A stretch of DNA of 64,000 nucleotides, taken from positions 32,001 through 96,000 of IMG/VR virus record IMGVR_UViG_3300050821_007134. The stretch is one strand, 5' to 3'. The first letter of the stretch is position 1, and each line of letters starts with the position of its first letter. The stretch comes from a virus. The translations under genes and the position numbers were made by a program. The notes below the pieces were generated by a model, which was not told the DNA's origin, did not search any database, and saw nothing but the letters and a program-made list of their open reading frames with translations. Shown here one piece after another: positions 44,982-64,000 of this stretch.

Positions 44982-45845
44982 TTAACTCTTTTTTAAAATA
45001 TCAGATTTCTTGATTTCTAAAAATTTAGCCAGTTTGGCCACACCTGTATTTTTCCCCGCGATAGCTTCGGATTTATCCATCCAATTCTTCTCGGCCTGTG
45101 ATCTAGGTAACGTAGTACCTTCGCCTTTTGCTTCAGAATTACCTGGAGCTTGTTTTGAAACTCCCATATCATCTGACTTCTGTACGTTCGAAGGAGGAGG
45201 AGTCGCAGACGGTTGTCCAATACTTTGAGCACCCTGAGCAATTTTAGCTGGTGTGATTGCTCCGCTAGCGGCAGCATTTGCAAAGTTGGCGCCGAAGTCT
45301 TTCTTCAACTCGGCCTTTTCCATTGGTTCATGTCTATATGTGTCAGAAGCATGAACTATTTCGTGGCTGTGTAAATTCTTAATTCCAATATTTCGAGCAT
45401 GTTCGGATACTTGATTTGGTGAAGCTTCGTGGGTGTGATATCCGTGTTCTTTCATGCTGTGGTGAACTTTATCAACTAAATGCTGTCTTACGTGTTCACC
45501 GAATTTATTTTTGCTTGATTTTTCAAGCTCTTCGGACTTTCTTACTTGGCCTTCCATTCCATATTTCTTGGTATTGTAAGGTCGAGCGCCGGGGGCCGCA
45601 TTATTGCCTTCGGCATTTTCTTTTGGATTTGTTCTAGGGTCTTGTTGTTCCCTAACGCGTCTTTTTCCCACGATATCTTCTCTATCGAGTTCTTCTTGGT
45701 GTCTGTGGGGAGCCTGAGTACCTAATTTCTTAGAATTCTCAGATTCATATTTCTTCAAAGCTGGGAAATTCTTAATAAGTTCAGTGACCTTAGCTGCTAC
45801 TGCTTCGGCTGCCTGTTTTGCTGTATAACGCTTTTCTTGTGCCAT
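44982..45845 (-). CDS. Low-complexity late protein, putative internal head protein
   Basis: Many [LIMV]xK[SA][ED] motifs; late motif at 45869-45875. Confidence 0.65.
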   Translation of the reverse strand: MAQEKRYTAKQAAEAVAAKVTELIKNFPALKKYESENSKKLGTQAPHRHQEELDREDIVGKRRVREQQDPRTNPKENAEGNNAAPGARPYNTKKYGMEGQVRKSEELEKSSKNKFGEHVRQHLVDKVHHSMKEHGYHTHEASPNQVSEHARNIGIKNLHSHEIVHASDTYRHEPMEKAELKKDFGANFANAAASGAITPAKIAQGAQSIGQPSATPPPSNVQKSDDMGVSKQAPGNSEAKGEGTTLPRSQAEKNWMDKSEAIAGKNTGVAKLAKFLEIKKSDILKKS

Positions 45846-45879
45846 TATTGAACCTCTTTATACCACTGTAAGATTAGTA

Positions 45880-46242
45880 TTATGACTTACACTTGGCCAT
45901 AAAATCTCTTAGTTTTCGAGCACTTGCATGTTTTACGTCTTTAAAGTCCTCGGATTTAAACATTCCTGGAGACTTTGGGGTTTTCGATATAGTACTTTGC
46001 TCGCCCGATTTCATTGGATTAGCCACGGCTGTCGGAGTTGGCTTAGGTGAAAGAATTTGTGCTTCAGATTTAAAAATCTCTTGCATGAATTCTTCAGCTT
46101 TTTCAAGACCTTGTGACTTTTTCATCCTATGGAATATGAAGTTAGCCAGAGCCCATTTAGGTTCTCCGCCACTTTTACCGGCAGCTTCTTTAGCTTCCGA
46201 CCATTTCTTTTCATCTTTCGGGGTCTTTACAAATCCTGGCAT
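45880..46242 (-). CDS. Late protein, putative internal head protein
   Basis: MKKSQ, LEKAE, IFKSE, MFKSE; AATCTTA 5 nt before ATG. Confidence 0.65.
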   Translation of the reverse strand: MPGFVKTPKDEKKWSEAKEAAGKSGGEPKWALANFIFHRMKKSQGLEKAEEFMQEIFKSEAQILSPKPTPTAVANPMKSGEQSTISKTPKSPGMFKSEDFKDVKHASARKLRDFMAKCKS

Positions 46243-46263
46243 GACTATAAGATTCCTACGATA

Positions 46264-47292
46264 TTATTCATTTTCATCTTCTGGGTCGGTGGAATCGTCG
46301 CCATTTTCATTATCTGTATACCAAATTTCATTGGCTTTATCGATAAAAGCTGGGGAATCTTCATTAGATAGGATTTTGATCCCTCCGAGGAATCCTTTGG
46401 ATGTTTTCTCTTTTAACGCAACGCTTTCAATAAATCTTCGCGGTGACTTGACCCAGCTGTTCTCTACTTGGCCAGTGATTGTGATGTATCTTCGAAAAAC
46501 TTCTTCACCTTCGACGCCGCCGTAATTGCTATCTTCCTGAAGGTCTGAACTGCTCAGAAGACTTTCCGTGAATCCGGAGGCCTCTAATAAGCTTTCTCTA
46601 TAACGCATTATACTATACATTGCGATTGACCAAAGCCAAAGTAGGTTTTGGGGATCTCCATGCGCATGACAGCCAATGGTGTAGCTTTCTTGAAAAAATG
46701 AGTGTTCAACTCTAGCCTTATATACTTGAAATTGTGGAACAATTCCGTATTTACTCGCATTGAGTTTTGTATCGGCTTCGATTAGGATACCAGCTTCAGT
46801 AATTTCCAGGATACCGTAACCGTTCCCGGTCGCAGGGTCAACAAGGATCATTCCCGGCGCAATCCCGTCGCTTCCCGGCGCATTCCCAGGGATCGCCAGT
46901 TCACCAGTTGATTGGTCATATGAAAGCGGGACGAAAGGCTTAACCACGTAGGGAATAGGCTTCCCAATAGTGTTTGGCATTAAGAGCACTGTCTCAGTGG
47001 ACTGGTCGGCCATGGTCTTCATGTCTTGTTTTTCAGGGCTATTTCCCATGGATATCGTTATGCAGGGCGTCTTATCTTTATCTTTTCTAAGTGCCATGTA
47101 AAATTCTATTTTGTTATTTGCGAACCACTCTTTACAGGCATCGATTTGTTTTTGGCCATATTTGTCTTTTAGATATGGGCTTGTGATTAAATCTTCAAAC
47201 ATGTGGTCAATAAGCCACGGATTCTTGCGCATGTCTTCGATGCCAAGCTCGATAGCTGTTTTTATTATCATGTCACCTTGAAAAATTCCCAT
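46264..47292 (-). CDS. Putative tail terminator/completion protein
   Basis: Position upstream of sheath; YTIGCHAHGD..LLWL pattern. Confidence 0.55.
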   Translation of the reverse strand: MGIFQGDMIIKTAIELGIEDMRKNPWLIDHMFEDLITSPYLKDKYGQKQIDACKEWFANNKIEFYMALRKDKDKTPCITISMGNSPEKQDMKTMADQSTETVLLMPNTIGKPIPYVVKPFVPLSYDQSTGELAIPGNAPGSDGIAPGMILVDPATGNGYGILEITEAGILIEADTKLNASKYGIVPQFQVYKARVEHSFFQESYTIGCHAHGDPQNLLWLWSIAMYSIMRYRESLLEASGFTESLLSSSDLQEDSNYGGVEGEEVFRRYITITGQVENSWVKSPRRFIESVALKEKTSKGFLGGIKILSNEDSPAFIDKANEIWYTDNENGDDSTDPEDENE

Positions 47293-47298
47293 AAACCC

Positions 47299-48054
47299 TT
47301 AATATTTTGCCAAAATTTGCGGCAATACGTTTGTTTCCCATTCTTTTAAAGCCCATTCATAGGCTTTTTCAAAAAAATGTTGTGCGTCGTATCCGGGGTG
47401 AATCCACTTACCTTCACTGGCCGGGCCACTACTTACAGTTCGAAAAGTCATAATGTCTCTTTGAACTTTTCCAGTAATACGATTTTTCTTTTGATATATC
47501 GTAACTCTAGCCAAAGCATCCGTTGTTGCCCTGCTTGTAGGCGGAGCGCTTGGGATACTGAATGAATGAAGTTTTCCAAGTCTTGGATTGCCACCAGATC
47601 CCGTTTCTATTTTCTTATAAGGGATTTTTCTGGCCTTCAATTCAGTTCTAATTTGGCTGACCAAACTTTGAGCGTATGAATTCATGGTAGATGGTGCCCT
47701 ACTATGCTCAAAAGGGATGGCCCTACTTTTATTACCTGTTCTAGGATTTACAGGAGCATCTTTTAAAAGAGATTCCTTCATATCCTTTCCGGGAGTAATA
47801 CCTTCTTCAATCCAAAGTGCGCTTTCATCAATGGTCAAAAGATGAACATGTGGCGCGATTTCTTGAGTCTTAAATCCTTTTTGGAATTGACTCAGCGTGG
47901 TATGAAGTTTATCTGCGGCCATTTCATCAATTTTTGCAGTAGTCATGGCGGCCAGACCATCGACGGCTTCTAAGATGTCCTTTTCAATTTCTTCTTTTGC
48001 TTCTTTAAATGCGCCAGCAATTGCCGAAGCATCAATATGTATTTTAAAGCTCAT
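47299..48054 (-). CDS. Putative neck/tail completion protein
   Basis: WIEEG...IPF.H...TFRTVSS...WIHPG, as in SPO1/Twort-like neck proteins. Confidence 0.65.
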   Translation of the reverse strand: MSFKIHIDASAIAGAFKEAKEEIEKDILEAVDGLAAMTTAKIDEMAADKLHTTLSQFQKGFKTQEIAPHVHLLTIDESALWIEEGITPGKDMKESLLKDAPVNPRTGNKSRAIPFEHSRAPSTMNSYAQSLVSQIRTELKARKIPYKKIETGSGGNPRLGKLHSFSIPSAPPTSRATTDALARVTIYQKKNRITGKVQRDIMTFRTVSSGPASEGKWIHPGYDAQHFFEKAYEWALKEWETNVLPQILAKY

Positions 48055-50228
48055 TAGTTATTCTCTTGAGCCGCTGCCTTAACAGGAACTCCGCTAGGAC
48101 CCATCACTACACCCTTTTTGCGATCAATCCATCGGGTCTTCCCGGTCTTTTGATCTATCGTCTTTTGTTGACCTTTCAGGTTTATAGAACCTGGAGTCAA
48201 AGGAGTTCTTGGAGTGTGCTTGGTCGTTGCTTTAGTGGGTAATTTTCCCAGGCCACTACCGCCTGGCTTACTTTCTTTTGGGGGCTCGTTAGCTGCACCC
48301 TCCTTAGGAGCAGCCGACTTATCTTTGTCTTCTTTTTTAGGAGGAAATCCACCTTTTTCTTTTCCAGGAGGACCTTCTTTGCCTTCTTTTTTCTCAGGAG
48401 CTTTACCGTCCTTCTTTGGAGGAAAGCCACCTTTTTCTTTTCCGGGTTCTTGTCCAGCTTCTTTGGCTGGATGACTACCACAAGTAGGACAAGGATGTTC
48501 TTCTTGGCCTGGAATTGGTTCTCCGGGCTGGCCTTGAGCACCTTGTTGTTCATTTGGAAGTTGTTCAGTACCATTTGAAATACCAAGCAATTTGGACATT
48601 TCAATCATGGCGCGAAGCATTGCGATACATGAAGAATAAAGCTCAGGGGATTGAGCCTGAGATTGTTCCAAAATTTGTTTGTTATTTTTAAACCCTTGAA
48701 GAGCTTGGCCGATCATCTGTTTTATTTGCTCTTTTTGAGCATCTTCGGCGCCGCCTTCTAAACCATCCTGCATTACTGATTGCATTGGAGGCTCTTCTTC
48801 CTGACCAGGAGGAAGTTCTTCTTGCTCTTGTCCAGGAATTTGTTGGTCGGAAGCCTGATCGGTAGGAGAAGCTTGACCCATCATATCATCTTGGGTATCT
48901 CCAGCATTCGGTCCTTCAAGATTTACGCCACCTTCAGGTCCGCCAGGCATACCAGTGTCTCCGGGAACATTCTGTTCCTTGAAACCATCTGGACGACTAA
49001 CATTCCCTTCCATCTCACTACCGACGGGCATAGCGCCACTATCAATATTGTTCATCTGTTCTTGCTGAACTTGTGGATCGGCAGGGGGAGTATCAACGTT
49101 CTCTTGAATTACTTCTTCAGCTTCTTCTTGAGGCTTGCCACAAGTCGGGCAATTTTGCGCGTGAGCTTCTTGTGGAGGCGCTTGGCCATTTTCAGGAGCT
49201 TCTTTAGGAGCTTCTTTGCCTTTTTCATCTTTCACTTCCTTTTTAGGTTTTTCTTTAGTATCCATATCACCTTCTGCCTTTTTAATAGGAGTTTTGAATT
49301 CATTTTTAGAGGGATCTTTACCGGTATCTTCGGCTTTTTCCCTAGGAGTAGACATTTCTTTTCCACTCGCATGTTTATTGGCTTGACCGTCTTCTTCTTC
49401 CTTTTGTTTTTCTTTTTTCTTATCAGGAAGAGCATTAGGTTGGCCCTGTTCGCCTTTGTTTTTATCTGGAAGTGGCCTGTCTTCAGCTAAGGCAACGTCG
49501 GGTCTAGTATCGCTTTTTGGCTCTTGTTGAGCAACTTTGGCGGATGCTTCTTGATTGACTTTTGCCGTAGCTTGTTCTGGAGATTCCTGAGTTAATGCAC
49601 TATCTTGTGCAACTTGAGAAGACTTTTCTGCCGATGTTCCTGCCGGTGTTTTGGCGGATGCCTTGGCGGATGTTTCGTCACTAGCAGTCTCAGAAGGAGT
49701 CTCACCAGTTTTCTCTTTTTGAATTTGATCTTTCTGCCATGAGTCTTGTTTGAAACCTTTATCATCTTCGGGCTTTAAATATGCTTCACCAAGCTTCTGT
49801 TCTTCTTCAGATCCTTGTCCTTGTGATAATCGATCTTGTGTGGCTTGGATGTCCTTATCAACGGAATCATCGTACATGACCACTTGATTTTTACCACGAA
49901 ATTTAGCAACCATCAGAGATTTTCCAGCTTGTGGAAGATCTTGGCCTACACCAACTGACATAGTCAGATTGGTTGCGAATTCATAATCGCGTCTTAATTC
50001 TTCGATATCTTGAACAGCTTCAGCCGGTAGAGAGAATAAACCTTCGTCTCCGCCCCCGCTGATGACCTGTCCATTATGTTCTTCAACCCATTTCTTAACA
50101 ACTTCATGGCCTAAACCAATGCGACTGGAGACTTCGCTAAGCGCGCCTGGATCGTTAGCCAAAATGGCACGACCTACAAGTCTACCGGCATTATCGCCAT
50201 CGTATGCTAAGAAAATCTGGTTAGTCAC
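48054..50228 (-). CDS. mCpol (minimal Cas10-like nucleotide cyclase) domain fused to a long disordered region
   Basis: aa 1-120: FLAYDGDNAGR...GQVISGGGDEG...TMSVGVG....A...L.VAKFRGKNQV; remainder rich in E/Q/P/K. Confidence 0.8.
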   Translation of the reverse strand: MTNQIFLAYDGDNAGRLVGRAILANDPGALSEVSSRIGLGHEVVKKWVEEHNGQVISGGGDEGLFSLPAEAVQDIEELRRDYEFATNLTMSVGVGQDLPQAGKSLMVAKFRGKNQVVMYDDSVDKDIQATQDRLSQGQGSEEEQKLGEAYLKPEDDKGFKQDSWQKDQIQKEKTGETPSETASDETSAKASAKTPAGTSAEKSSQVAQDSALTQESPEQATAKVNQEASAKVAQQEPKSDTRPDVALAEDRPLPDKNKGEQGQPNALPDKKKEKQKEEEDGQANKHASGKEMSTPREKAEDTGKDPSKNEFKTPIKKAEGDMDTKEKPKKEVKDEKGKEAPKEAPENGQAPPQEAHAQNCPTCGKPQEEAEEVIQENVDTPPADPQVQQEQMNNIDSGAMPVGSEMEGNVSRPDGFKEQNVPGDTGMPGGPEGGVNLEGPNAGDTQDDMMGQASPTDQASDQQIPGQEQEELPPGQEEEPPMQSVMQDGLEGGAEDAQKEQIKQMIGQALQGFKNNKQILEQSQAQSPELYSSCIAMLRAMIEMSKLLGISNGTEQLPNEQQGAQGQPGEPIPGQEEHPCPTCGSHPAKEAGQEPGKEKGGFPPKKDGKAPEKKEGKEGPPGKEKGGFPPKKEDKDKSAAPKEGAANEPPKESKPGGSGLGKLPTKATTKHTPRTPLTPGSINLKGQQKTIDQKTGKTRWIDRKKGVVMGPSGVPVKAAAQENN

Positions 50229-51183
50229 GTTTTTTCCTTAAAGTATCTAGGAGCATTTCAATGTTTTCTGCATCCCAGCCTTTACCAAATCTGACTTTTA
50301 TTCCCTGTTCGGTCTTTTTAATGAAGACCTTCTTTTCTCGATCCTCACCAAGACATATGCACCCGGAAAAAATAGATCCGTCAAAAATGTGCTTACCGCA
50401 ATCCGGGCATTCAACAGTTTCGCCTTTAGCCATCTCAATTGAGAATTCATTCTTTTTACTCTTCCTAAGTTCTATGAACTTTTTTAATTTTTCGTGACCC
50501 TTTTTCATGGGCTCAACAAATTCTGGTTCTTTTCCTGTTACAACAGATTCTACGACCTTCATACCGTTAGTCATTCCTCGAAAGTATTGATCGGACTGGG
50601 GTGTAGATTCCTGTTGAATTTTGGTTATTTCTGAAACTTTGTCTGTAAGTTTCAATAGAACCAATTTATCTACAGCTTCTCTCTCCATGAGTTTCTTATC
50701 GATAACTTTACCGATTAAATCATGAAGTGCTATTCTCTCATCGACTAATTTTTGAACCTTTGCGTCAATGTCAGTGTTACCACTTGACATATTCTCTGAC
50801 AATTGGTTAACGTCATAAAGTTCGAAAGCACTCATTATGACAAGTCCCACTCCTGGTATAGCGCGATTGACAAACTGCACTATTAGTTTAGAACCTTGTC
50901 TGATTTCTCCGCTATAAACGTCTCTTTCATGTTTTTGAGCATTTAGTATAGCGCCGCCTTCCACTGGAAGGTCGAATTCTTTATTTTCACCGATGGCCAT
51001 TGGTGTTAGTTCTTTGATGACTAAAGCCATTACAGTTCTTGGAACAATTTGTAAGGCGGTCCTTAATTCTTCATGATCGACAACGGTACGAGTTCCGGGC
51101 TTATAAAGCTCGAATTTCTGCAAAGACTCCATGTAGTCCTTGCCCAAGGTCTTTTTCAAGAAGAAGTTAGCGCCTGAGGCCAT
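50221..51183 (-). CDS. Late protein with C-terminal Zn ribbon
   Basis: CPDCG...GCIC. Confidence 0.7.
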   Translation of the reverse strand: MASGANFFLKKTLGKDYMESLQKFELYKPGTRTVVDHEELRTALQIVPRTVMALVIKELTPMAIGENKEFDLPVEGGAILNAQKHERDVYSGEIRQGSKLIVQFVNRAIPGVGLVIMSAFELYDVNQLSENMSSGNTDIDAKVQKLVDERIALHDLIGKVIDKKLMEREAVDKLVLLKLTDKVSEITKIQQESTPQSDQYFRGMTNGMKVVESVVTGKEPEFVEPMKKGHEKLKKFIELRKSKKNEFSIEMAKGETVECPDCGKHIFDGSIFSGCICLGEDREKKVFIKKTEQGIKVRFGKGWDAENIEMLLDTLRKKRD

Positions 51184-51674: not shown

Positions 51675-52601
51675 TTATTCGCCTTCTGTAATTGTGGACA
51701 TATCCACTGGTATCACGGGGTTAGCTGGGTCAATGGATTCAGTGGGCGCTTCCACGACTCTTCCAGGTGTCTTCGATTTGAGCTGATTGACTTGGTCACC
51801 CTTATTTTGATTGTGATAGATGTATTCCCGGACGATCTCAGCGTAGTAGGGCATTCTTTCGGGACTTCTGACGCCATTAGTCGTAACATTGGTGATTCGG
51901 ATTTCTTTGGGGAGGCTGACCACATACCAAAAAGCATTGTAGAGATATCTGATTGAATATATTCGGCCTTTTCCGGTATCTGGATCAATTCCTGGATTTT
52001 TTCCGCCTTTTTCCCAGCGAATGCTGCCTTCACTTGTGAGGCAAAAATCAACACCGAGTTTGTATTCAATATTACGGCTGTCGATTAAAAACTCAATACT
52101 TACAATAGGATACATCGGAATATTGTCCGCATCAGGGGTGTAATCCATTTTATGATATGTGGCTACTTTGGTGTCTGCCTTTGGATCGGCAACATAAAGT
52201 CTATCACCAGGGGCCAAATAAATTCTATCACCATTCGACATGTCGGGGGTTCCCGGAGCATTATAGAACCTAGGCAGGACCAAACGGCCAACGGCCACGT
52301 CTACGAACCCGCCATCACTTTTCTTCTTGTCTCGTTTGTCATCTGTCATGGTGGCCGAGAAAACTCCGCCACATTTGTAAATAAAGCCGTTTGAGGTAAT
52401 TGTGTCGACTCCGTCGCTTCTGCGGTAGTCACCCTTGTCTTTTTGACCAATAGGGCTAGGAATTGCCTTGTAATGGTTGAAATCAACGGCGAAGCTTGTG
52501 ACAAAAGCATCCTGTTTGGCCAGATCTAAAGAATGCTGGACGAAGGGACTTTCGCGTTGAATATCATCGACTTGTATGCCGACGGGTTTACGATCTGACA
52601 T
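51675..52601 (-). CDS. Putative head closure/neck protein
   Basis: GFIY...LAPGDRL...YSIRY..W.V pattern of SPO1-like neck proteins. Confidence 0.55.
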   Translation of the reverse strand: MSDRKPVGIQVDDIQRESPFVQHSLDLAKQDAFVTSFAVDFNHYKAIPSPIGQKDKGDYRRSDGVDTITSNGFIYKCGGVFSATMTDDKRDKKKSDGGFVDVAVGRLVLPRFYNAPGTPDMSNGDRIYLAPGDRLYVADPKADTKVATYHKMDYTPDADNIPMYPIVSIEFLIDSRNIEYKLGVDFCLTSEGSIRWEKGGKNPGIDPDTGKGRIYSIRYLYNAFWYVVSLPKEIRITNVTTNGVRSPERMPYYAEIVREYIYHNQNKGDQVNQLKSKTPGRVVEAPTESIDPANPVIPVDMSTITEGE

Positions 52602-52960: not shown

Positions 52961-53482
52961 TTATTTACCCGTAATTTTAACCTTTGACGCATTGCAAGAC
53001 ATTGCCTTCTCGGCAGTTGCCCCGGCCAGTGCCCGGCGGAATTCTTGCGGTGCAGTAACACCATCAATAACAATTGAATCTCTCTCGAAATGGCTCATTA
53101 CAGAGGCCACCTTAGCGTTATTTTTGGTAATGTGAAATTCCACCATGCTACCATTTTGGATAGAATAAATACCATGACCAGACTTCCTAAGATCCTCGCT
53201 CAACCAATGAGAATGTTCATCGACGATGGAAGAATCAGTCATTCCCTCGCTTTTCATCAAAGCTGGCTGAAAGTCTGGGTATTGTTTTCCAAGGTTGAAC
53301 TTTACAACAGCTGGATGACTCCCTGCGGCTAAAGCTTCTTCCCTGTATTTGCCTTTTGGTTTACCAATGGCAATCCAGAAACCTCCGCGAGTGCGGATCA
53401 TTTTAACTGGATGTTTGTCGAGCATACCAGCATCTTCTATATGTTCAATTTCTTTTTCAGTGAGAATTGGCTTGTCGCTCAT
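52961..53482 (-). CDS. Hypothetical late protein
   Basis: AAGGAG SD; LMKSE motif. Confidence 0.7.
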   Translation of the reverse strand: MSDKPILTEKEIEHIEDAGMLDKHPVKMIRTRGGFWIAIGKPKGKYREEALAAGSHPAVVKFNLGKQYPDFQPALMKSEGMTDSSIVDEHSHWLSEDLRKSGHGIYSIQNGSMVEFHITKNNAKVASVMSHFERDSIVIDGVTAPQEFRRALAGATAEKAMSCNASKVKITGK

Positions 53483-55005
53483 TTCTTAACTCCTTGATTA
53501 TAGGCATTATTTATTTTTATTACATGCCAGTGTTTACTAATGTCTTGTTTGTCGTGTTGGGCCTTATAAGTACCGCGAATTCCTTCTAACCATGCATATC
53601 CTATTTTCTGCGGATCGTTGCCAAAATGTTTTTCAAGTCTTTTCAAATGCTGCTTAGCAATAGTGTCTTCTAGGCCTGGATTGTCTCTCATGAAGTTTTG
53701 CAATTGGGGACCGCGAAGGATAGTGGCTTTTTGATATTTGTGCTTTAGTTCTGGATGAAGGCTTATTGTTTCTCGTATGATATTTGGCGTTAAAGCATAC
53801 TTACCGTATGCTTGTTCGCCAGAATGTAATCTCTTGTGATGTGTGTTCTTGCCGCCGCTACTTTCGACAGAAGCGATAGTTCTAAGCATGTGTTCTGGAC
53901 TGTAAGTGGGAGCCTTGAATGCCGGGGCTTGCATAACCTTTGGAGCCGCGTCTACACTTTGGGGAGCGGCGGGCTGACCAATTAAAGAAGAAGCGGCGAT
54001 CATTGCGCCTGCGGCTTTAGTCTTAAAGCTTTTTTCCATGTCTTCTGTAAATTCATATATGGTATTCCCGGCGCCTTTTTCAACACTAAGGTTATCGAAA
54101 TGGACTTCATCCGGAGATAGACCCTCCTTCTTTATTTGGTCATAAAGAGGCTTGTCGATTGTAACGTGTGTGAAATATTCTTTATATTGCACTCCGTCAA
54201 TAGTGTCATAGAATTTTTTGTATTCTGGAGGGCATCCGTCAATCATGAGCATGAAATAATCGGCATCGCTATAATCAGAATGATGAATTTTGGTATGGAA
54301 TCTTAAAGCATGAGGATCTGGTTTTGTAATTCCAAGTCGTTTGACTTTGGCTTTGATATCTTCGATATCCATCTTTTGTTTTTCGTCAAAAACCTTAAGA
54401 GACATATGAAGAGGAATATCATCCGTTAAGAATTTACGACCTTTGATGGTTACTTTGAAAAGTACATCTCCGCCAGATTTTGCTTTCTTTCGATATTCAT
54501 TGCAAACACCAGTTCCGATTTTTTCTCTTTTAGCAATATCGGGCTCGATAAGTTGATTGTTAATAGTCTGTTCGGGAGATCTCTGTACTCCACTTTGACC
54601 TTCGCCTTCAGCACCAGGATTTGATCGCATATCGCGATCTCCAGTTTCAACCTTTAGTACTTTGATGCCATAGGCAGCGAGTTCTTTAGCCCATTTGTCC
54701 TGCTCTTCTTTATGGCAAACTACGTAGGCAGAATCAATAAATTCCCTACTTTTTTGAATGATGACATGATCTGGGTATTTCATTGCAAAAAGTTCAACGG
54801 CTCCAGGAGGACTGGACGATTGATCTAAAATGATTTTACAATCAGATGGAATTTCCATGACAGGATTGTAAGTATCATTGTTTATGACAGTATCTCCGGC
54901 GCTACCACTAGGAGCAGACCCCGACTCAACGATATCGCTAAGTTCTTGAATAGAATCTTCCAATGTGCGTCTCATATGTTTATGCAGCATGATGCCACTT
55001 CCCAT
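53479..55005 (-). CDS. Multidomain protein: Acb1-like 2H phosphoesterase plus lytic transglycosylase
   Basis: LHMSL (H200) and YFTHVTI (H280); C-terminal IASVESSG...AYGKY...YAWLEG. Confidence 0.7.
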   Translation of the reverse strand: MGSGIMLHKHMRRTLEDSIQELSDIVESGSAPSGSAGDTVINNDTYNPVMEIPSDCKIILDQSSSPPGAVELFAMKYPDHVIIQKSREFIDSAYVVCHKEEQDKWAKELAAYGIKVLKVETGDRDMRSNPGAEGEGQSGVQRSPEQTINNQLIEPDIAKREKIGTGVCNEYRKKAKSGGDVLFKVTIKGRKFLTDDIPLHMSLKVFDEKQKMDIEDIKAKVKRLGITKPDPHALRFHTKIHHSDYSDADYFMLMIDGCPPEYKKFYDTIDGVQYKEYFTHVTIDKPLYDQIKKEGLSPDEVHFDNLSVEKGAGNTIYEFTEDMEKSFKTKAAGAMIAASSLIGQPAAPQSVDAAPKVMQAPAFKAPTYSPEHMLRTIASVESSGGKNTHHKRLHSGEQAYGKYALTPNIIRETISLHPELKHKYQKATILRGPQLQNFMRDNPGLEDTIAKQHLKRLEKHFGNDPQKIGYAWLEGIRGTYKAQHDKQDISKHWHVIKINNAYNQGVKK

Positions 55006-56200
55006 GTACTATGTTTTCGGGCAGTAGACCAGCTTTTTGATCTGCGTAAACTGTCTTTTGAGGATTTTTTCTATTTTCTTCGCCATGTTTGCCAAAATTG
55101 ACGGTATTATTTTGTCCCATCGTTTCTGTGGCGAGTGCCTTTTGTGCTTCAGGAGAATACATTTGTTTGTGAGTTAAGAATGCAGAATGTTCACCCTTAG
55201 GACCAAAAGTATGTCCTTCTTTGGCATGACCAAAATAATCGTGTACTATTCTGAATACGTCATTGGCAAGTAGTGGGCTGCCTTCATGGAGAATCTTTGT
55301 AGGTGTCAATAGAGGATGATCCTTCGGAGCACTTCCTTCAGAACCAAATCCACCTTCTGTTGGGAAAAACCAGAGATGATTGTTATTATGGATATCGTGC
55401 ATTACGTCTTTTGAATTTTTATAAGGGTTGGCCATTCCCGGTTTGATCTTTGAAATCTTCAATCCACTATTCTTAATATGGTTGAACTGATCCATAGTTT
55501 CATTGATCAGGGCGCCATATGCTTTCTGAACAGCTGGGTCTCCGGGACTGTGCTTCATTCCTTCATATGAACTAGCTATTTGTTTACCGTGTTCTGGATT
55601 AACATTGACAGCTGGTGTAGGAGATAGTTTTATCCCTTTACTTTTGGCATAACTCTCCGCAACTTGTTTTACTTTATTGTCAGGTTTCAGACCAATACTA
55701 GGAGTAGGTTGAGCAGCAGATTGAATTGGTTTTTCTTCGGCCTTTTTCATATCTTCATTGAAGTTATGAGTAAATCGTCCGGCGCCACCAGGAAGAGTTG
55801 TATAAAAATCTTTTGGCTGTTGAGCATGCCAGGTAGTTCCTTGTCCCATTACTTTCTGCCCAGCTTTTTCTCCATGATGATAACGCATTTCATGTTTCTT
55901 TCCAGTAGAATAAATGGAACTCTCTTGACCCAGATTAGCGGCTAATGAATGAAGTTGTTCGGCTTGTTGGGGAGAAATTTTGTAAATGATTATTGATTTT
56001 TCTGGTTTTCCATAATGACCCATAACTTCATGGGCGTCGTACTGAGCACCCTTAAGATGTTTCAAAACAGCTGCATGATCTAGATTTAACTTGTTTTGTT
56101 CTGGGTATATTGGATTGTCAGCGGACATAAGGAAATGCGGTCCGGAAATGCTTTTCCGGTGATCTTTCATCGCATTTAATATGCCTCTATCAACGCCCAT
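54980..56200 (-). CDS. Multidomain protein: SAM-lyase/DUF3293-like domain plus HDxxGH domain
   Basis: LMSADNP, VMGHYGKPEKSI, LAANLGQESSIY, DFYT; then FRIVHDYFGH..GE...ATETMGQN. Confidence 0.6.
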   Translation of the reverse strand: MGVDRGILNAMKDHRKSISGPHFLMSADNPIYPEQNKLNLDHAAVLKHLKGAQYDAHEVMGHYGKPEKSIIIYKISPQQAEQLHSLAANLGQESSIYSTGKKHEMRYHHGEKAGQKVMGQGTTWHAQQPKDFYTTLPGGAGRFTHNFNEDMKKAEEKPIQSAAQPTPSIGLKPDNKVKQVAESYAKSKGIKLSPTPAVNVNPEHGKQIASSYEGMKHSPGDPAVQKAYGALINETMDQFNHIKNSGLKISKIKPGMANPYKNSKDVMHDIHNNNHLWFFPTEGGFGSEGSAPKDHPLLTPTKILHEGSPLLANDVFRIVHDYFGHAKEGHTFGPKGEHSAFLTHKQMYSPEAQKALATETMGQNNTVNFGKHGEENRKNPQKTVYADQKAGLLPENIVHGKWHHAA

Positions 56201-56208
56201 TTTACACC

Positions 56209-57039
56209 TTAGAAGTTATCTATGAAATATTTTGAACTAAAGATCCCGCGAAGCTTTCTAACAAGCTCATCTCTTTGGGCCATTAATTCTTCTATTCTCA
56301 GCTGATAAATTCTAGGGCCGGGGCCACTAGAAGATTGAGAAATACCATCCTGAGACAAGCTTTGAGAAGTATGAATGAACAATGGAGCAAGCATACTCAA
56401 GATATGGATCGCAGTAATAACACCAACCAATTCGTTTACTGGAACGGGAACAAGGCCTTCTTTATTTGAAAGACCAGCCGTGTATTTAATTTGCCAGTAA
56501 GCGGGAACCCAGTTGAGTCCGTCTATGACAGTCAAAAAGGCGATACCGGCGTTACCGACAGCACCTTGGACAGAATTGACTCCATAGGCGGCCAACAGTG
56601 GAATGACGTTGATCAAATTTTTGGAAAAATTCGCAGCTTCAATCCACGTAGGGGGGATTTCGAAAATTAAATTATTGTCTGAACTTACAATTGCAAGATG
56701 TTCCAAACTTACAATTGGTCCGTGTTCCGCTCGGAGATGGATGTAAGTTTTGTACAAATTGTAATCAAATGGCAATTTTTCCTTAAAGGCTTCCCTGGTA
56801 ATTGTTCGGCCTAAAAGTAATTCAGCGTCGTTCATGGCGACCATTATATAGTCTTTCATCTCATCATCGGTAATAAAATCGCCATTTTGCATTCGAAGGG
56901 GGATTCCCTTCAACCAACGAGAAATAACCTGCTGTGGCTGCAATAGGGGCTCACAGCGCCTAAGTAGGCCAGAGGTTTGACTGGCATGTACGGGGTACAT
57001 TGCCGTTTCATATGTTTTTGTTAAGGTATAATCTCCCAT
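56209..57039 (-). CDS. Head-tail adaptor/neck protein
   Basis: Position after capsid; P.YWQIKYTAG, SQSLSQDGISQS. Confidence 0.65.
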   Translation of the reverse strand: MGDYTLTKTYETAMYPVHASQTSGLLRRCEPLLQPQQVISRWLKGIPLRMQNGDFITDDEMKDYIMVAMNDAELLLGRTITREAFKEKLPFDYNLYKTYIHLRAEHGPIVSLEHLAIVSSDNNLIFEIPPTWIEAANFSKNLINVIPLLAAYGVNSVQGAVGNAGIAFLTVIDGLNWVPAYWQIKYTAGLSNKEGLVPVPVNELVGVITAIHILSMLAPLFIHTSQSLSQDGISQSSSGPGPRIYQLRIEELMAQRDELVRKLRGIFSSKYFIDNF

Positions 57040-57626: not shown

Positions 57627-58256
57627 ATGTCAGCAAAAGTCATTGAATTCGAAGGGATCGACGGCTCGGGAAAGACCACGGCCTATAACTACTTCATTCA
57701 GACATTAAGAGATCAAGGTAAGAGAGTTTTGGACACCCGAGAAGTGGGAAATCCCCATATTCCCGTCTGTGTCGCTCTAAGAAAATTAGTTCTTGATCCC
57801 TCAAGTAAAATGGATGGAATGTCCATGGAATTCGTGTTTGCTGCTATGCGTATCGAAAATCAAAGAATGTATCGCGCTGTCGAAAATGACTATGATTACA
57901 TCGTAAGCGATCGAGGTCTTCTTTCTCACTTGGCTTACACAGACCACAATGTGACTTCAGTTTTTACAGACATGTTTTATCGTGGCCTTGTGATGCAATA
58001 CACACAAAATCCTGATCAAGTCATATTTTTGGAAATTGATCCAGAAACAGCTCTTAAACGTAGAAATTTGCGAAATGGTTTTGTCGACGCCATTGAAGCA
58101 AAAGGACCTGAATTTCAACGAAAGGTTTATTCCAGTTTTACAAAATACATCCATGAATTAGCAGAAAATACCGGTCTAAGTTACACGATGATTGATGCCA
58201 ATGTTAGTATCGAAGAAGTTCAAGCTCAATTGGACAGAGTAATTTCCGAATTATAA
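57627..58256 (+). CDS. tmk: Thymidylate kinase
   Basis: FEGIDGSGKTT P-loop, TRE, SDR..LS.LAY. Confidence 0.93.
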   Translation: MSAKVIEFEGIDGSGKTTAYNYFIQTLRDQGKRVLDTREVGNPHIPVCVALRKLVLDPSSKMDGMSMEFVFAAMRIENQRMYRAVENDYDYIVSDRGLLSHLAYTDHNVTSVFTDMFYRGLVMQYTQNPDQVIFLEIDPETALKRRNLRNGFVDAIEAKGPEFQRKVYSSFTKYIHELAENTGLSYTMIDANVSIEEVQAQLDRVISEL

Positions 58257-58290
58257 AAATAAAAAGGCCCTAGGGCGAAACCCTAGGGCC
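58255..58290 (-). terminator. Rho-independent terminator
   Basis: GGCCCTAGGG-TTTCG-CCCTAGGGCC-TTTTTATTTTT. Confidence 0.85.
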
Positions 58291-58338
58291 AACGAGACAG
58301 TAGACGGTTGACGAAGACCGTCTTCGGGAGGAACTTAA

Positions 58339-59307
58339 TTAGGGGCCAGTGTTGCCGCTGATTAATGTAACTGCGGTCTGAGCATAGAGAGATCCGTGAA
58401 CCGTACATGTCGCTTGAACTGCGATTGATGTTTGATCCAAGATAACGCCTCTGAATATTGAACTTGTTTTCAGAGTGGTTGCGCCTGCAACTGCCCATGT
58501 AACGTTTTGTGGCAAGATTCCACCAGTCAAATGAATTTGAACACCAGTTTCTAAATTGAGAGTACCGGCAATTTGAAGGATGATTGAATCTGCGGGTCCG
58601 CCATTGATAGTGATATCACCAGTGACATCGACTGCTGTGGACCATTTGTAAATCCCAGGAGTTAAAGTTTGACCGTTAAGAGTACCTGCGCCTAAGTTAA
58701 CAACCGGAGCTGGGCTTGTTTGTGCTTGAGCAAAAGTGTAAGCAGCTTGCATTGCACTAACAGCTGCCGTTAAGTTTGCAGGAGTTGGAGCTGCGTTATC
58801 GGAAGCATCCACGTTTCCAGAAACTTCAACAGCACTTCCATGTGGGCCAGCGAGATTTGGAGTGTATGTGAAACCAGTGATTGCAGTATGTGAAATTGGA
58901 CTTACTGCAATGTTACCTGTAACTGTTGCGCCGGATGCATTGCTGATTCCAGATTCAGCTAACATTCTGTAATTTGAAGCAGAACCTAAGTTTACCAAAG
59001 CTGGGCCACGATGAACAGGAATTGCGCAATGAGCATTGATGCTTGCAACGACGGCTTCCATAACATCATCACTTGCGAACCCATCTTCCATTACTGCTTG
59101 GTCATGCAGAGAAAGAGATCTTTGACATAACATAGCAGCTTGAATATTTTGGGCTACGGTTTTGCTGCCCATGGCGTCTGTCAATCTAATGAAAGTTTTT
59201 GGTGAGAGAATTGCGCCAGCATCGATTGCTGCACAAAATTCTTTACCGGCTTTTACGTCTGCCAGTGCGACAATGACGTTGGGAATAAATTTACTCGGGA
59301 ATGCCAT
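58339..59307 (-). CDS. DUF3494 ice-binding-family protein with ~100-aa N-terminal domain
   Basis: VNLGSASNY..LAESGISN, GQTLTPGIYKWS, I.QIAG.L, NVTWAVAGATTL, G.LYAQTAVTL. Confidence 0.9.
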   Translation of the reverse strand: MAFPSKFIPNVIVALADVKAGKEFCAAIDAGAILSPKTFIRLTDAMGSKTVAQNIQAAMLCQRSLSLHDQAVMEDGFASDDVMEAVVASINAHCAIPVHRGPALVNLGSASNYRMLAESGISNASGATVTGNIAVSPISHTAITGFTYTPNLAGPHGSAVEVSGNVDASDNAAPTPANLTAAVSAMQAAYTFAQAQTSPAPVVNLGAGTLNGQTLTPGIYKWSTAVDVTGDITINGGPADSIILQIAGTLNLETGVQIHLTGGILPQNVTWAVAGATTLKTSSIFRGVILDQTSIAVQATCTVHGSLYAQTAVTLISGNTGP

Positions 59308-59373
59308 AAAATCTCCTTAATAGTTTTTTGCGCTTTAGATGCGCTTATACATATTAAAGATTAGTATTCGTGC

Positions 59374-59652: not shown

Positions 59653-59783
59653 TGTTTCTACCTACATAGAAAGTTATACTGAGTTTAACCCAGTTTATCG
59701 ATTATCCCTAACATTCTGGAAATAATATAGCACACAAATAAGATTAAACATATCAATTTGATAAGATTAAACTTATTTTGGGC

Positions 59784-59814
59784 AAGAAAAAGGCCACGTC
59801 TTTCGACGCAGCCT
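59784..59814 (-). terminator. Terminator after major capsid gene
   Basis: AGGCTGCGTC-GAAA-GACGTGGCCT-TTTTCTT. Confidence 0.8.
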
Positions 59815-59914
59815 CTTCCTTTCGGCTTGCTCCACCAGGGCGGACAACAAATCCCCAGATATTGCTACCTGGGATCTGTTATCTACCCCTTAGGGGCAGG
59901 CTAACTTTTAATTC

Positions 59915-61315
59915 TTATGATCCACCAGGGGTCAATTGACCAGTGATGTTCTCAAGAAGAACGTTTTTGCGAGGTTGGAAAACAGCGAGAGACAAGAATC
60001 TGAAATGTGCTTCGGGGAGCGACAAGTCATTGATTGCAAGTTTCAATTTGCTGTAAGGAGCCAATTGAGCGATGCTCATTGTGTTTCCTTGAACGAGGAA
60101 CCCTGTAACAGATCCTTCAGATCGGTTACCGAGGTCGGTAAATACTGGGTTACCAATCCCTTGAGAGATCTTACCGATGAACTTAGCAGAAGCGGCAGAT
60201 CCACCAGCACTTGAACGATAAACGTTGTAGTACTGAGCGCCAGCAACAGCGGTAATGGTAACGGTAACTTTATCACCGGCCAAAGCAACTGCTTGCGAAG
60301 CGGAAGGGGAGGGGAGCGACTCACCACGGATACTTACGGCGGTTACATAATAAACGTATGTAGCAGCTTGGAGTAATGATCCGGCAGCACCGGCATCAGC
60401 AAGAGCAGGAGCAGCGGGTTGATTTGGGCTGCCTGCGCGAGCGCGTGCGGGGCGGGTTTTACCAGAGAGGAAACGAGAAGCTTCTAGCGAAACAATGGCA
60501 CTTGATGTCCATTGAGTTCGTAAATGAGCGCCTGAGGCCTCTTGAGGAGAACCGGCGAGCATAATACGTTCTTTCGCATGAGCGATTTTGTTATATTGAC
60601 TGAGGGTGATAGGATCGAGAACGAGTCTGTCAGCAGCACCCATGTTCATTGCTGAACGAACCGAGCTATCTTCGATGATGGACTGTGCTAATGCACCGCC
60701 AACAGAGAGGATAACAGTTTGGTCTGAACCGTACTCAGCAAACATCAAGTCTTGAGTGTTTGATTGAGCATCGGATTGACGAACTTGTTGATCGAGACCG
60801 ATCATGTTTGGAACTTTTGCGACTGCAAGAGGGTTACCATCGAACACCCCAGCATTGGAGAAATCTGATTGTCCTCGGAAGAGGTCAAATTCGATATCGC
60901 CAGCAAGCTTCATAGCTGCGTCAGCTGAAGCTCTATCTTCGGCTTTAACACCGTCGAAAGCACCAATCATATTGGCAGCAACAGTGACTCGACGAGTCGT
61001 GCTGTAATATGACATGGGGACTACTGCACGAACATAATTCGTGGTGTCTTCTTCGCCGATTCCGCCTTCAAATTGAGCAGAACCTCCGAAAATACCATAG
61101 TCAAGTTGACGGTTAAACTGGTGAAGCTGAGACTTAACGTCTTTGCTTGGCAGCATTTTTTGCAACTTGATATGACTGTCATCGAATGTAACATTATGCA
61201 TTACGGGGGAAAGATCTTCCACCATAAGTGCAGCACCTTGAGCCAATTGGCCGGGAGCCGCGTTATAGCTACCTGCTTCTAGGGCTTTCATAAGTGACTG
61301 AAGTTGTTCGATCAT
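59915..61315 (-). CDS. Major capsid protein (SPO1/Twort-like) with FN3-like insertion
   Basis: GAALMVEDL, F.EGG, IEFDLF.G; YVYYVTAVS..GES.PS...YNVYR insert; P.K.VL..NI. Confidence 0.9.
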   Translation of the reverse strand: MIEQLQSLMKALEAGSYNAAPGQLAQGAALMVEDLSPVMHNVTFDDSHIKLQKMLPSKDVKSQLHQFNRQLDYGIFGGSAQFEGGIGEEDTTNYVRAVVPMSYYSTTRRVTVAANMIGAFDGVKAEDRASADAAMKLAGDIEFDLFRGQSDFSNAGVFDGNPLAVAKVPNMIGLDQQVRQSDAQSNTQDLMFAEYGSDQTVILSVGGALAQSIIEDSSVRSAMNMGAADRLVLDPITLSQYNKIAHAKERIMLAGSPQEASGAHLRTQWTSSAIVSLEASRFLSGKTRPARARAGSPNQPAAPALADAGAAGSLLQAATYVYYVTAVSIRGESLPSPSASQAVALAGDKVTVTITAVAGAQYYNVYRSSAGGSAASAKFIGKISQGIGNPVFTDLGNRSEGSVTGFLVQGNTMSIAQLAPYSKLKLAINDLSLPEAHFRFLSLAVFQPRKNVLLENITGQLTPGGS

Positions 61316-61345
61316 ATTTTTCTCCTTGTTTCCTTATGCCTCTGT

Positions 61346-62260
61346 TTATTTAAGCAGATGGCTAATAGTTTTAATGTCGGCACCATTTAAATAAAATTCG
61401 TTGATCGCATCTCGGTCAGCTTTGGCCAAGGTAGGATCAGCGGACTTTTTCAATAAAATCGGGGTAATTTCACTCTTTGTGAGTGGCTGTACTTCTGCTC
61501 CAGCGCCTTCGCCTTTGGCAATTACATCAATTGATGTAATAGCTTTTTGGGGAGGAGGAGTAGTTTTCTCAACAAACTTCGTTAAGAAAGCGGTTACTGC
61601 GTTAAGTTGATTCTTCGAATCTTCATTTTCTTTTTTGAGAGACTCGATTTCAGATTTCAAAAGATCGGCTTCTGACTTATTCATTTCGCTTCCTTTGTTA
61701 AGTACAGGTTGAGGTGTTTCTGAATCAGCGGACTTAGCGCCCGGCGATCCCTTCGGGGGACATTTCTCAATTTCTGCCTTATTCAAGACAGGTTGAGGTG
61801 TTTCTGAATCTGAGGATTTAGCCCCAGGAGAACCCTTCGGAGGGTTTGCTTCGATTTTCCCAGTTTCGGTCTTATTAAGAACCGGTTGGGGCGTTTCAGA
61901 AGCTTCAGATTTGGCTCCAGGTGAACCTTTGGGAGGGCAAGCGTTCATTTCTCCGCCATTGCCGTCTGCTTTTGCGAGATCGCCATCGGTCATTGCCTTT
62001 GCGATTGACTCATGATGAGCTTTTAACTCACCCTTCGACATAGACTTATACATTTTATGCATAGCCTTTTTGTCTTCTTCGTCGTAATCACAATCCTCAT
62101 TCTTTTCAATAGCGGTCGTTTCCGACTTAACTACTTCAGCGGAGGGCTCTGATTTTGCAAGCGGGGCAGCGGCCTCGCCTTCAGCTTTCTTAAGCTCTAC
62201 TGAGAATTCTTTTTCGATTTCCGAAACAAGACTCAATAGTTGCTGTTCTGTGTAATGCAT
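61346..62260 (-). CDS. Putative scaffold protein
   Basis: Upstream of capsid; charged, many xxK[SA]E motifs, 3 internal repeats. Confidence 0.7.
   Translation of the reverse strand: MHYTEQQLLSLVSEIEKEFSVELKKAEGEAAAPLAKSEPSAEVVKSETTAIEKNEDCDYDEEDKKAMHKMYKSMSKGELKAHHESIAKAMTDGDLAKADGNGGEMNACPPKGSPGAKSEASETPQPVLNKTETGKIEANPPKGSPGAKSSDSETPQPVLNKAEIEKCPPKGSPGAKSADSETPQPVLNKGSEMNKSEADLLKSEIESLKKENEDSKNQLNAVTAFLTKFVEKTTPPPQKAITSIDVIAKGEGAGAEVQPLTKSEITPILLKKSADPTLAKADRDAINEFYLNGADIKTISHLLK
61695..61940 (-). repeat. Three intragenic repeats PPKGSPGAKSxxSETPQPVLNK
   Basis: Seen in translation; codons diverged. Confidence 0.85.
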
Positions 62261-62295
62261 AATTCAAACCTCCTTTATTGATCCAACGTCTCCAA

Positions 62296-62781
62296 TTAAA
62301 CAGATTTAGTTGGCCAGTAAAGTTCGTCGATATCTGCGATTGGGGAAGCAGCCATAACGTTTGCATCCGTAGCAGCAGATCCGTTAGCAAGCTCAGCAAG
62401 CTGCCAACGAGCGCCAACTTTAATCGATTCAAATTTGATCGCTTCAAGATCGGCGTGTGAGGGAATTGGATTTGTACCGGCTGCGCCACTTAACTCATAG
62501 CCCATTCTGATGATGTGTGGGGCGTATGCGTCAGTACCGTTACCGAAAATATCTTTAGAAACAGCGTCTACGTTGCGACAGTCGATAATAACGACAGGCT
62601 GACCTTCAGCTTCGTTACCGTTCTCAGAAATAGCAAGATAGGGCCAAACTGCACCGTTTGCATCGGCAGCAGAGAAAGCCGTTCTGACTGAATTCATTGA
62701 TGTGCCGCTATAGGCAAGTCTTTTCGACAGTTTATCGCTAAGATCTCTCAAGAGGGCGATTGCTTTTGCATTACTGTACAT
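62296..62781 (-). CDS. Putative head-associated protein
   Basis: First gene of capsid operon, AAGGAG SD. Confidence 0.7.
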   Translation of the reverse strand: MYSNAKAIALLRDLSDKLSKRLAYSGTSMNSVRTAFSAADANGAVWPYLAISENGNEAEGQPVVIIDCRNVDAVSKDIFGNGTDAYAPHIIRMGYELSGAAGTNPIPSHADLEAIKFESIKVGARWQLAELANGSAATDANVMAASPIADIDELYWPTKSV

Positions 62782-62968
62782 ATTTTATTTCTCCTTAAAT
62801 TTGTCAGTGTTTAACACTTGACCATTCTTTAAAACGTGAATGGGATAACTTACGTAATGTCTAAATGATTACTACTCTTGACCAAAAATCAATGATTTCC
62901 AATACTTCCAGACCGTTTTTGGGAAAAGTGGCTATTTACATAAAATCTGATATATTTTAGGCTGGGGC

Positions 62969-62975
62969 AATCTTT
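62969..62975 (+). promoter_or_regulatory. Putative late promoter motif AATCTTT
   Basis: Upstream of protease ATG, on the coding strand. Confidence 0.5.
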
Positions 62976-62997
62976 ACTTTGGAGATACACGAACATT

Positions 62998-64000
62998 ATG
63001 GCCACTCTAATTCACGGGATTGCCGCTTCAGAAAATATTGACTCTTCGGGCGAAAGAATCATCATTGCCGGTATGGATATTTCCAGTCTTGAAAAAGACG
63101 GAGTTTTCAACTGGGAACACAAATCTGACCAACCAGCTCAAGTAGTTGGTAAGATATTGAAAGCAAAGAAGATTTTCTCAGAAAAAGACTGCGAAAATGA
63201 GCATGAAAAGCGCTTTTGGGAAAAATGTGGAGTTCCATTCGTCTATGTAATGGGCGAACTTTTGGATGACTATAAAGAATCAGCCAAAGAAGTGGCCGGT
63301 ACCTTCCGATACGATCATGATCACAAAGACCGCGACGAACGCAGTATTTCGAACTTCTCTATAGAAGGGGCTAAAATCAACAAAGTAGGAATGGACGTTC
63401 CTAATTCTATTGCGCGCAAGGTCACGATTACTGTCCATCCCTGTAATAAAGTGGCCATCGCCACCCTTTACCCTACAGATAAAAAATCACATTCCAAAAA
63501 AGATGATATAGATTCACTATTTAAGACCGAAAGTACGGAAATTGAACTTTTCAAAGCAGAAGATCTCGATTATGGTAAAATGACCCTTTCTGAGGCCATG
63601 GCCAAAAAAGAAGATCCTGCCGTTCATGCAAAAGCCTTGGGAGTTGAACCTATGAAAAAAGAAGATATTGCCGGTACGACTGGCGCTCCCGCCAATGTCG
63701 CGCAACGCGCCCTTCCAATGATTAAAGCCGGTTCGGCCCCCGCGAAACCCAATTTAAACATAGTTGGCGAAAATGGCCATAAACTTGGTACGACTAAGGG
63801 CGGCCATGATATTCATAGTCACAAACGGGTCCACGAATATGGTCCAATGCATCCTAATGATCACCTTGAAGCTGCGAATATGCACTTTAATGCTGCTCAG
63901 GCCGCCCGAGACCCAAAAACAGGATCTCATCATATGGATAAAGTCCGTCTTCATATGGAAGCACATAAAACTTCCTCTCGTAGGGAAGAAAGACTTCATC
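62998..64000 (+). CDS. Prohead protease with long C-terminal extension, partial (not in ORF track)
   Basis: Manual translation MATLIHGIAASENIDSSGERI..G.D...FNWEH...GEL...FSIEG...VTITVHPCN; open to the window end. Confidence 0.85.
   Translation, partial: MATLIHGIAASENIDSSGERIIIAGMDISSLEKDGVFNWEHKSDQPAQVVGKILKAKKIFSEKDCENEHEKRFWEKCGVPFVYVMGELLDDYKESAKEVAGTFRYDHDHKDRDERSISNFSIEGAKINKVGMDVPNSIARKVTITVHPCNKVAIATLYPTDKKSHSKKDDIDSLFKTESTEIELFKAEDLDYGKMTLSEAMAKKEDPAVHAKALGVEPMKKEDIAGTTGAPANVAQRALPMIKAGSAPAKPNLNIVGENGHKLGTTKGGHDIHSHKRVHEYGPMHPNDHLEAANMHFNAAQAARDPKTGSHHMDKVRLHMEAHKTSSRREERLH

Follow-up and report, generated by a model that had tools for sequence, protein, structure and literature searches.

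What do candidate enzymes of nucleotide signaling do between the neck genes of a phage? The question is raised by a 64,000-nucleotide stretch of viral DNA (hereafter the window; positions 32001-96000 of IMG/VR record IMGVR_UViG_3300050821_007134), in which proteins of the head and neck operon carry a minimal Cas10-like palm cyclase (mCpol) domain, a 2H phosphoesterase domain, and an S-adenosylmethionine (SAM) lyase domain. On the evidence below, we lean towards the view that these are polyvalent proteins of the head interior, which the prohead protease cuts into independent modules, and that infection delivers the modules, each to its own target.

The genome around the window is a 171,073-base virus record that is estimated to be complete and occurs in soil metagenomes, with no RNA sample among the sources listed. 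Its closest cultured phage by capsid identity is Myxococcus phage Mx1 (52%), and the identity to SPO1 is 27%. By these comparisons, it is an uncultured Mx1 relative with a SPO1-type head module. We retrieved 80 loci of relatives (capsid identity 50-97%), and the presence of domains was counted in 49 relatives, 19 of them near-complete. One relative was binned in a metagenome-assembled genome (MAG) that NCBI places in Myxococcia. Because of this placement and the kinship with Mx1, the host is probably a myxobacterium or a related deltaproteobacterium.

A lysine motif shared by head and putative cargo proteins

The strict motif [LIMV]xK/[SA][ED] (the slash marks the predicted cut) was found 23 times in the region 44600-66000 of the window, where 2.4 matches were expected, and 14 times in the rest of the genome, where 11.8 were expected. 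The preliminary description had reported the motif across the cargo, its neighbors, the scaffold, the capsid, and the protease; the 10-fold enrichment bears this out for the region, except that there is no match in the open reading frame (ORF) at 50221-51183 or in the neck genes. Since the motif had been chosen in this region, we tested it on the relatives, which together with SPO1 and Mx1 provide the independent evidence. Among the orthogroups of the relatives, the enrichment was 23-fold in the scaffold, 11-fold and 6.6-fold in two small conserved proteins, 4.2-fold in the slot cargo, 4.1-fold in the protease, and 2.9-fold in the mCpol carrier, against only 0-1.5-fold in the neck, adaptor, and sheath orthogroups. 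In the window, the neck or tail-completion-type genes (46264-48054, minus strand) are without the motif and served as internal controls together with 51675-52601 and 56209-57039.

The motif is also placed at the joints of domains. A relaxed pattern occurs at 15/20 C-terminal and 8/9 N-terminal borders of the 2H domain and at 14/18 C-terminal borders of the SAM lyase, against a background of 3%, and the cores of the SAM lyase, the transglycosylase, and an unnamed module contain no relaxed match. The sites that had been pointed out at domain borders, MEKSF between 2H and transglycosylase (amino acid, aa, 323) and MKKAE after the SAM lyase (aa 151), are present, as is LMKAL of the capsid.

The major capsid protein (59915-61315, minus strand) is of the SPO1/Herelleviridae type, with predicted maturation at LMK/AL (K10), and this site is conserved in 59/69 capsids. 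In the PDB, a 439-aa capsid chain (9row) begins right after K24 of a 463-aa precursor (5lii), which fits cleavage after Lys. The scaffold protein (61346-62260, minus strand) has nine motif sites. The prohead protease (504 aa; plus strand, 62998-64000 and running on to window-equivalent 64512) has an extension that contains motif sites as well as a copy of the N-terminal arm of the capsid protein. This copy (near aa 338-370 of the protease at 62998-64512; also L135:11158-11928) follows directly after a motif site, and the copies are alike within each phage (the window, Mx1, and SPO1); it may be a shell anchor of the protease polyprotein or an autocleavage site. Among the head, neck, sheath, and tube genes of SPO1, the motif is limited to portal, protease, scaffold, and capsid. 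From its spread in the relatives and SPO1, the arm copy, and the start of the 9row chain, the motif is therefore very probably the site of the prohead protease.

Enzyme modules of the slot proteins

The SAM lyase module (55727-56200, minus strand) ends at MKK/AE. Its structural model (predicted local distance difference test, pLDDT, 88) matched the T3 SAM lyase with Z 10.3 and a root-mean-square deviation of 3.7 over 122 aa, and the next unrelated structure reached 5.3. In addition, 12/18 homologs matched PF23780. All seven active-site residues are kept in its G-x-Y, E-x-S, and Q-E-S motifs: G61, Y63, E67, S69, Q92, E93, and S94 correspond by motif to G56, Y58, E69, S71, Q104, E105, and S106 of Svi3-3 (PMC7877911). 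Thus, the SAM-lyase-like domain proposed at 55760-56143 is confirmed.

Next to it lies a conserved unnamed module (phrog_3170; 54983-55699, minus strand), which the preliminary description had passed over. It is also found in Rhodococcus phage E3 gp205, a 'structural protein', and in a 'large polyvalent protein' of Pag-Yong1; Pfam, PHROGs, and Atlas gave no family for it.

The 2H phosphoesterase (54025-54525, minus strand, in the ORF 53479-55005) has the motifs H200-x-S and H280-x-T, and both His are invariant across 20 homologs. The model (pLDDT 89) had only 2H proteins among its top 20 VIA matches. Its fold neighbors were rotavirus VP3 phosphodiesterase (PDE; Z 9.1), CPDase (8.7), and YjcG (8.4), and Acb1 (7t27, Z 6.7) stood near the bottom of the top 20. 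Sequence searches against PDB and Pfam gave weak LigT-type matches only. The window protein did not match the Acb1 family profile (PF23474), to which one of the 20 homologs matched at E 0.098 and none of the proteins in 23 genomes matched in a search without positive control; the ESM Atlas neighbors include Acb1 clusters (0.93). An Acb1-like 2H domain had been proposed at 54046-54483. The fold and the His motifs agree with that proposal, but membership in Acb1 does not hold: by sequence and model, the domain belongs to the 2H phosphoesterases and its His motifs are intact, and 'Acb1-like' describes a resemblance only. The N-terminal 160 aa before 2H carry no motif site as separator. Besides the window, this part (54526-55005, minus strand) occurs in the closest relative (L001) alone, and no family was found for it.

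The same chain ends in a lytic transglycosylase (SLT) module (53479-53955, minus strand) with putative catalytic E381. The Pfam match is weak in the window (E 0.07), and eight slot homologs match as well, the best at E 1.8e-12. Before it (53956-54039, minus strand) lies the predicted cut site MEK/SF, followed by a basic and then an Ala-rich hydrophobic stretch, which by hydropathy resembles a signal peptide. Such a segment follows 12/13 pre-SLT sites, that of Mx1 included, against 35/924 other sites. Judged by hydropathy alone, a cut before SLT would place a signal-peptide-like segment at the new N-terminus. This suggests a possible route of an ejected cell-wall enzyme to the periplasm, and the segment could also be the relic of a captured gene. 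Cells turn spherical following Mx1 adsorption (PMC6070905), and the export-like signal may bear on this.

Across the relatives, cargo modules reassort at motif joints, and we found the orders SAM lyase-2H-SLT, 2H-unnamed, and unnamed-SLT. The slots of relatives also hold ART-PolyVal domains, kinases, and GNATs besides the SAM lyase. These chains thus have the marks of polyvalent proteins, namely several conflict-enzyme domains per chain, shuffling among relatives, and a head gene context. Genes similar to GIY-YIG/NUMOD homing endonucleases recur in the cargo slot (likely carriers are the motif-free slot ORFs of L009, L012, L021, L026, L036, and L061) and could drive module turnover.

The mCpol domain and its carrier protein

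The mCpol domain (49869-50228, minus strand) occupies aa 6-119 of the ORF 48054-50228. Its assignment in the preliminary description is correct: the domain matches PF18182 with E 1.6e-13 (51.5 bits, cut-off 26.4) and the OptS structures 9mnr/9nwn with E 3e-7 as a single sequence and 1e-17 as a profile. D10 and D61 align with the catalytic D6 and D57, both of which are required in KpOptS (PMC12657218). Furthermore, S34 aligns with the adenine-selecting S30, through which KpOptS is selective for ATP (PMC12657230). At the N34 position, the window mCpol has Gly and relatives have mostly polar residues. In a model with ATP and Mg, two copies were predicted to form a symmetric dimer, with a score of 0.78 against 0.02 for the best control, 100% contact agreement between runs, and pLDDT 92-93; the mark for this score is reached by 20/30 solved homodimers and 1/23 single chains. 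Because the OptS dimer has already been solved, the prediction shows likeness only and may reproduce that solved structure.

The rest of the 724-aa carrier (48054-49868, minus strand) contains a low-complexity linker, two CxxC knuckles, a single motif site (IKKAE, aa 315, about 195 aa past the domain), and two conserved segments, at aa ~480-600 and at the C-terminus (aa 650-717). Both segments are retained in a lineage that lost mCpol. In three proteins, internal mCpol copies begin 7-9 aa past a motif site. The fusion family comprises 431 clusters at E 1e-30 or better, and long fusions make up nearly all of the best 150. Both catalytic Asp are kept in 137/152 family representatives.

The genes flanking the carrier are conserved structural-operon genes without a 19-aa hydrophobic segment above 1.6. 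No operon of the Panoptes type, with OptE/2TM-beta or CARF-TM as the transmembrane effector beside mCpol, was found, and a genome-wide search for PF18153, made without positive control, gave no match. A module of about 60 aa, possibly DUF5661 or DUF6321, moves among mCpol carriers, slot proteins, and proteases (L110-L115, L120, L129, L132, and the protease end of L002).

Proposed packaging, cleavage, and delivery of the cargo

We propose that the locus is the head and neck operon of an Mx1-like myophage with variable slots for multi-domain cargo proteins. The cargo would be made late and enter the prohead alongside scaffold and protease, where a protease of the SPO1 type would cut [LIMV]-x-K/[SAG] behind its Lys. 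The modules set free would be 2H, the SAM lyase, the unnamed module, the transglycosylase with its new export-like N-terminus, and an mCpol-bearing fragment, and these would be ejected with the DNA. Their targets would be cyclic-oligonucleotide signals, SAM-dependent restriction or signaling, and the cell wall. From the sequence comparisons, cleavage at the motif is likely and so is packaging in the head, and the chances of ejection with the DNA are about even. Internal head proteins cut into modules had already been suggested for this locus, and that suggestion is well supported by comparison, as the motif is confined to head-type proteins and cargo joints and agrees with SPO1 and 9row.

However, several observations weigh against this model. 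A relaxed site lies downstream of mCpol in just 17/39 carriers, and within 175 aa in six of these; therefore, neat release of an mCpol module is not general. The 2H cores contain six relaxed matches. In addition, 11-12 of the 44 mCpol copies, that of Mx1 included, are degenerate (as inferred from the KpOptS D6N result) and yet retained. Finally, instead of being ejected, substrates of the prohead protease may be degraded and expelled in the manner of scaffold, as is established for T4-type heads.

The enzymes could instead act mainly in the producing cell, late in infection, where 2H would clear signals of the cyclic oligonucleotide-based antiphage signaling system (CBASS) triggered by the prohead protease, and the cut sites would serve activation or disposal. 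Prohead proteases cleave CD-NTases and thereby activate CBASS late (PMC12991175), and within their late operon, the genes show tight coupling. Furthermore, G002 and L018 have proteases fused to a 2H-like module, and the signal-like segment would also be compatible with export out of the producing cell. Nevertheless, a SAM lyase directed against restriction or bacteriophage exclusion (BREX) is of greatest use at entry, scaffold and capsid have the motif too, and the protease polyprotein bears the copy of the capsid arm. We consider action mainly in the producing cell fairly unlikely, and it is not mutually exclusive with delivery as head cargo.

The cultured phage Mx1 makes the claims of cleavage and packaging testable. 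Its gene order is the same as in the window. The protease has 1239 aa and an adjoining GGDEF gene, and the slot holds a 1479-aa YunG/GNAT/ART-PolyVal/NUDIX protein with sites at several joints, together with a kinase. A SAM lyase-like module lies before the sheath gene, and the orthologous carrier contains a degenerate mCpol. The Mx1 accessions are WNM70333 and WNM70334 for the slot proteins, WNM70340 for the mCpol carrier, and WNM70344 for the protein before the sheath gene. We detected no copy of the window-type 2H in Mx1. With its degenerate mCpol and without this 2H, Mx1 is therefore suited to questions of cleavage and packaging, not to mCpol catalysis. GGDEF-like cyclase modules were found beside the protease gene of Mx1 and in G031, G036, and G039 (L084:17173-17904; L126, L127, and L128).

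Distribution of mCpol and 2H in the relatives

Among the relatives, mCpol is present in 44/49 (16/19 near-complete) and the window-type 2H in 25/49 (10/19), and the SAM lyase is patchy. By sequence, mCpol thus behaves as an old, near-core, fixed module of a conserved protein and not as a shuffled partner of 2H. It would probably make an adenylate cyclic oligonucleotide that jams or holds down nucleotide-sensing effectors of the host. An unlikely but consequential extension is that a large Mx1-like clade packs and injects active mCpol, so that cyclic oligoadenylate made by the phage silences Panoptes-type guards or jams effectors of CBASS or of type III CRISPR systems while the co-injected phosphodiesterase clears the alarm. 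If true, the virion would deliver a counter-defense whose mode of action is the synthesis of an immune signal.

The preliminary description had put forward a narrower scheme, in which a signal destroyer and a decoy synthase form a coordinated set: mCpol, delivered together with 2H, makes up for the inhibitory signal that 2H destroys, so that a Panoptes-type guard stays silent while CBASS is disarmed. Panoptes is indeed triggered by Acb1 (PMC12657230). In the capsid tree, nearly all members of the window's clade have both 2H and intact mCpol, and D10N, the substitution that inactivates KpOptS, is found in one clade without 2H. The naive Fisher test of 2H against intact mCpol gave P = 0.012. However, these relatives reduce to only 3-4 independent pairs, and the sign test is not significant, so the co-occurrence survey lends the scheme no support. 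G037, G038, and G042 have 2H with mCpol absent or degenerate, and G018, G041, G039, and the G025 clade have intact mCpol without the window-type 2H; those of them that were searched yielded neither a sponge nor Acb1. Acb2/Tad1 sponges occur in 2/23 genomes, both of them 2H-positive; neither Tad2 nor, in the search without positive control, Acb1 was found above cut-off in any of the 23.

The G002 lineage, where mCpol is absent and the cargo slot is empty, has a second, divergent 2H-like module at the C-terminus of the prohead protease (L002:6542-7200 and L018:6474-7000, both minus strand). It has two His motifs, and hhalign gave E 0.0012 with a probability of only 19%; the fold is likely by sequence. 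The co-loss of mCpol and 2H in G002 had been taken as a sign of coupling and was withdrawn, as this protease carries the other 2H-like module, and the association becomes still weaker when G002 is counted as 2H-positive. Moreover, a 2H enzyme that cuts the decoy would cut the copy made by the phage too, and 2'3'-c-di-AMP is simply spared by some phage 2H enzymes (10.1101/2025.08.21.671373). We regard this evasion of a guard as improbable. When 117 genomes from the phylum of the relative's MAG were searched for Panoptes, there were only two full-length matches, both in that MAG and at least one of them on its phage contig, and one partial match; the group may not be Myxococcota proper, its genomes are incomplete, and the result is uninformative on the host.

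Very unlikely, finally, is an effect of the nucleotide enzymes on host physiology (housekeeping c-di-GMP or 3'3'-cGAMP of myxobacteria or Bdellovibrio), or a role of mCpol as a nucleotide-binding or dimerizing scaffold: M. xanthus makes housekeeping cGAMP (PMC12288465), GGDEF-like cyclases occur in the four phages named above, and degenerate mCpol copies are retained, but the co-cargo is typical conflict weaponry and most representatives of the mCpol family keep both catalytic Asp.

Comparison with known systems

The overall design is that of the polyvalent proteins of Iyer et al. 2017 (PMC5512222), which are multi-domain, head-linked cargo with 2H, lysozyme or transglycosylase, ART-PolyVal, GNAT, and kinase domains. 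There, 2H is proposed to degrade defense nucleotides, and processing is proposed before or after packaging. A term search of that text gave no mCpol and no SAM lyase. Processing is credited there mainly to metallopeptidase domains, and assemblin-like peptidases are C-terminal, whereas in the window the assemblin-like protease is N-terminal and a short motif stands at the joints.

Herelleviridae (SPO1 and phi812/K) share with the window the capsid family, the protease-scaffold-capsid set, the motif xxK/S or xxK/A in portal, protease, scaffold, and capsid, and the arm copy in the protease. However, the neck genes of SPO1 are not interspersed with cargo genes, its protease has only 256 aa, and its capsid is distant from that of the window. 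As proposed here for the cargo, ejection proteins of SPN3US and phiKZ-like phages and internal proteins of T4 are head proteins that undergo cleavage by the prohead protease and enter the host by ejection (PMC10052503). These phages belong to an unrelated head lineage, and their cleavage was shown by mass spectrometry, whereas that of the window is predicted. Head cleavage in SPN3US, phiKZ-like phages, and T4 is Glu-specific.

With Panoptes OptS (PMC12657218, PMC12657230, and PMC13577387), the window mCpol shares the family, the catalytic Asp pair, and the adenine-selecting Ser, and it is predicted to form a symmetric dimer. Type I systems make c-di-AMP isomers and type II systems make cA3. 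Unlike OptS, the window mCpol is phage-encoded, is fused to a long structural-operon protein, and has no effector gene alongside. The window 2H shares the fold and both His motifs with Acb1 and viral 2H phosphodiesterases, but it has no Acb1 Pfam match, its model scores closer to the folds of rotavirus VP3 PDE, CPDase, and YjcG than to that of Acb1, and it is fused in a late protein. The SAM lyase has the fold and the seven active-site residues of the T3 and Svi3-3 enzymes (PMC7877911). Unlike that of T3, it is a module of a late, motif-bounded protein. The T3 enzyme is encoded by an early stand-alone gene.

The mCpol papers that we term-searched contained no description of a phage mCpol, and we found no description of a SAM lyase as late cargo or of a signal-like segment exposed by a cut. 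The locus points to a large branch of mCpol in phages; until now, the family has been studied as part of bacterial defense. If active, phage mCpol is a candidate for counter-defense by signal synthesis. Meanwhile, the motif offers a sequence rule that predicts the head cargo proteins of SPO1-type phages and the positions of their cuts.

Other features of the genome

Other proteins of the operon, or their families, carry the motif as well. The conserved 173-aa protein at 52961-53482 (minus strand) has a conserved site, LMKSE, and its family is the one with 11-fold enrichment. The conserved 320-aa protein at 50221-51183 (minus strand) has a C-terminal Zn ribbon and no strict site here, and its family is 6.6-fold enriched. 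Two low-complexity proteins before the tail sheath gene (44982-46242, minus strand) have five and three motif sites, and this position holds large cargo proteins in Mx1 and other relatives. Matches to sigma-70 promoters were at chance level only.

The phage also encodes a GroEL-like chaperonin near the terminase and portal genes (L081:13974-15842; G000 107973-109841). The head cluster is interrupted by a gene that reads, by its motifs, as DNA-ligase-like (L081:2669-3943) and by a thymidylate kinase gene (57627-58256, plus strand). The protease/portal block is inverted relative to the capsid operon, and Mx1 differs in this. Furthermore, the gene after the capsid gene (58339-59307, minus strand) contains an Ice-binding-like domain (PF11999, E 4e-54), and a second PF11999 domain (E 2e-31) is inserted at aa about 174-400 of the tail sheath protein (41889-44663, minus strand). 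These domains are patchy in the relatives and possibly serve surface display.

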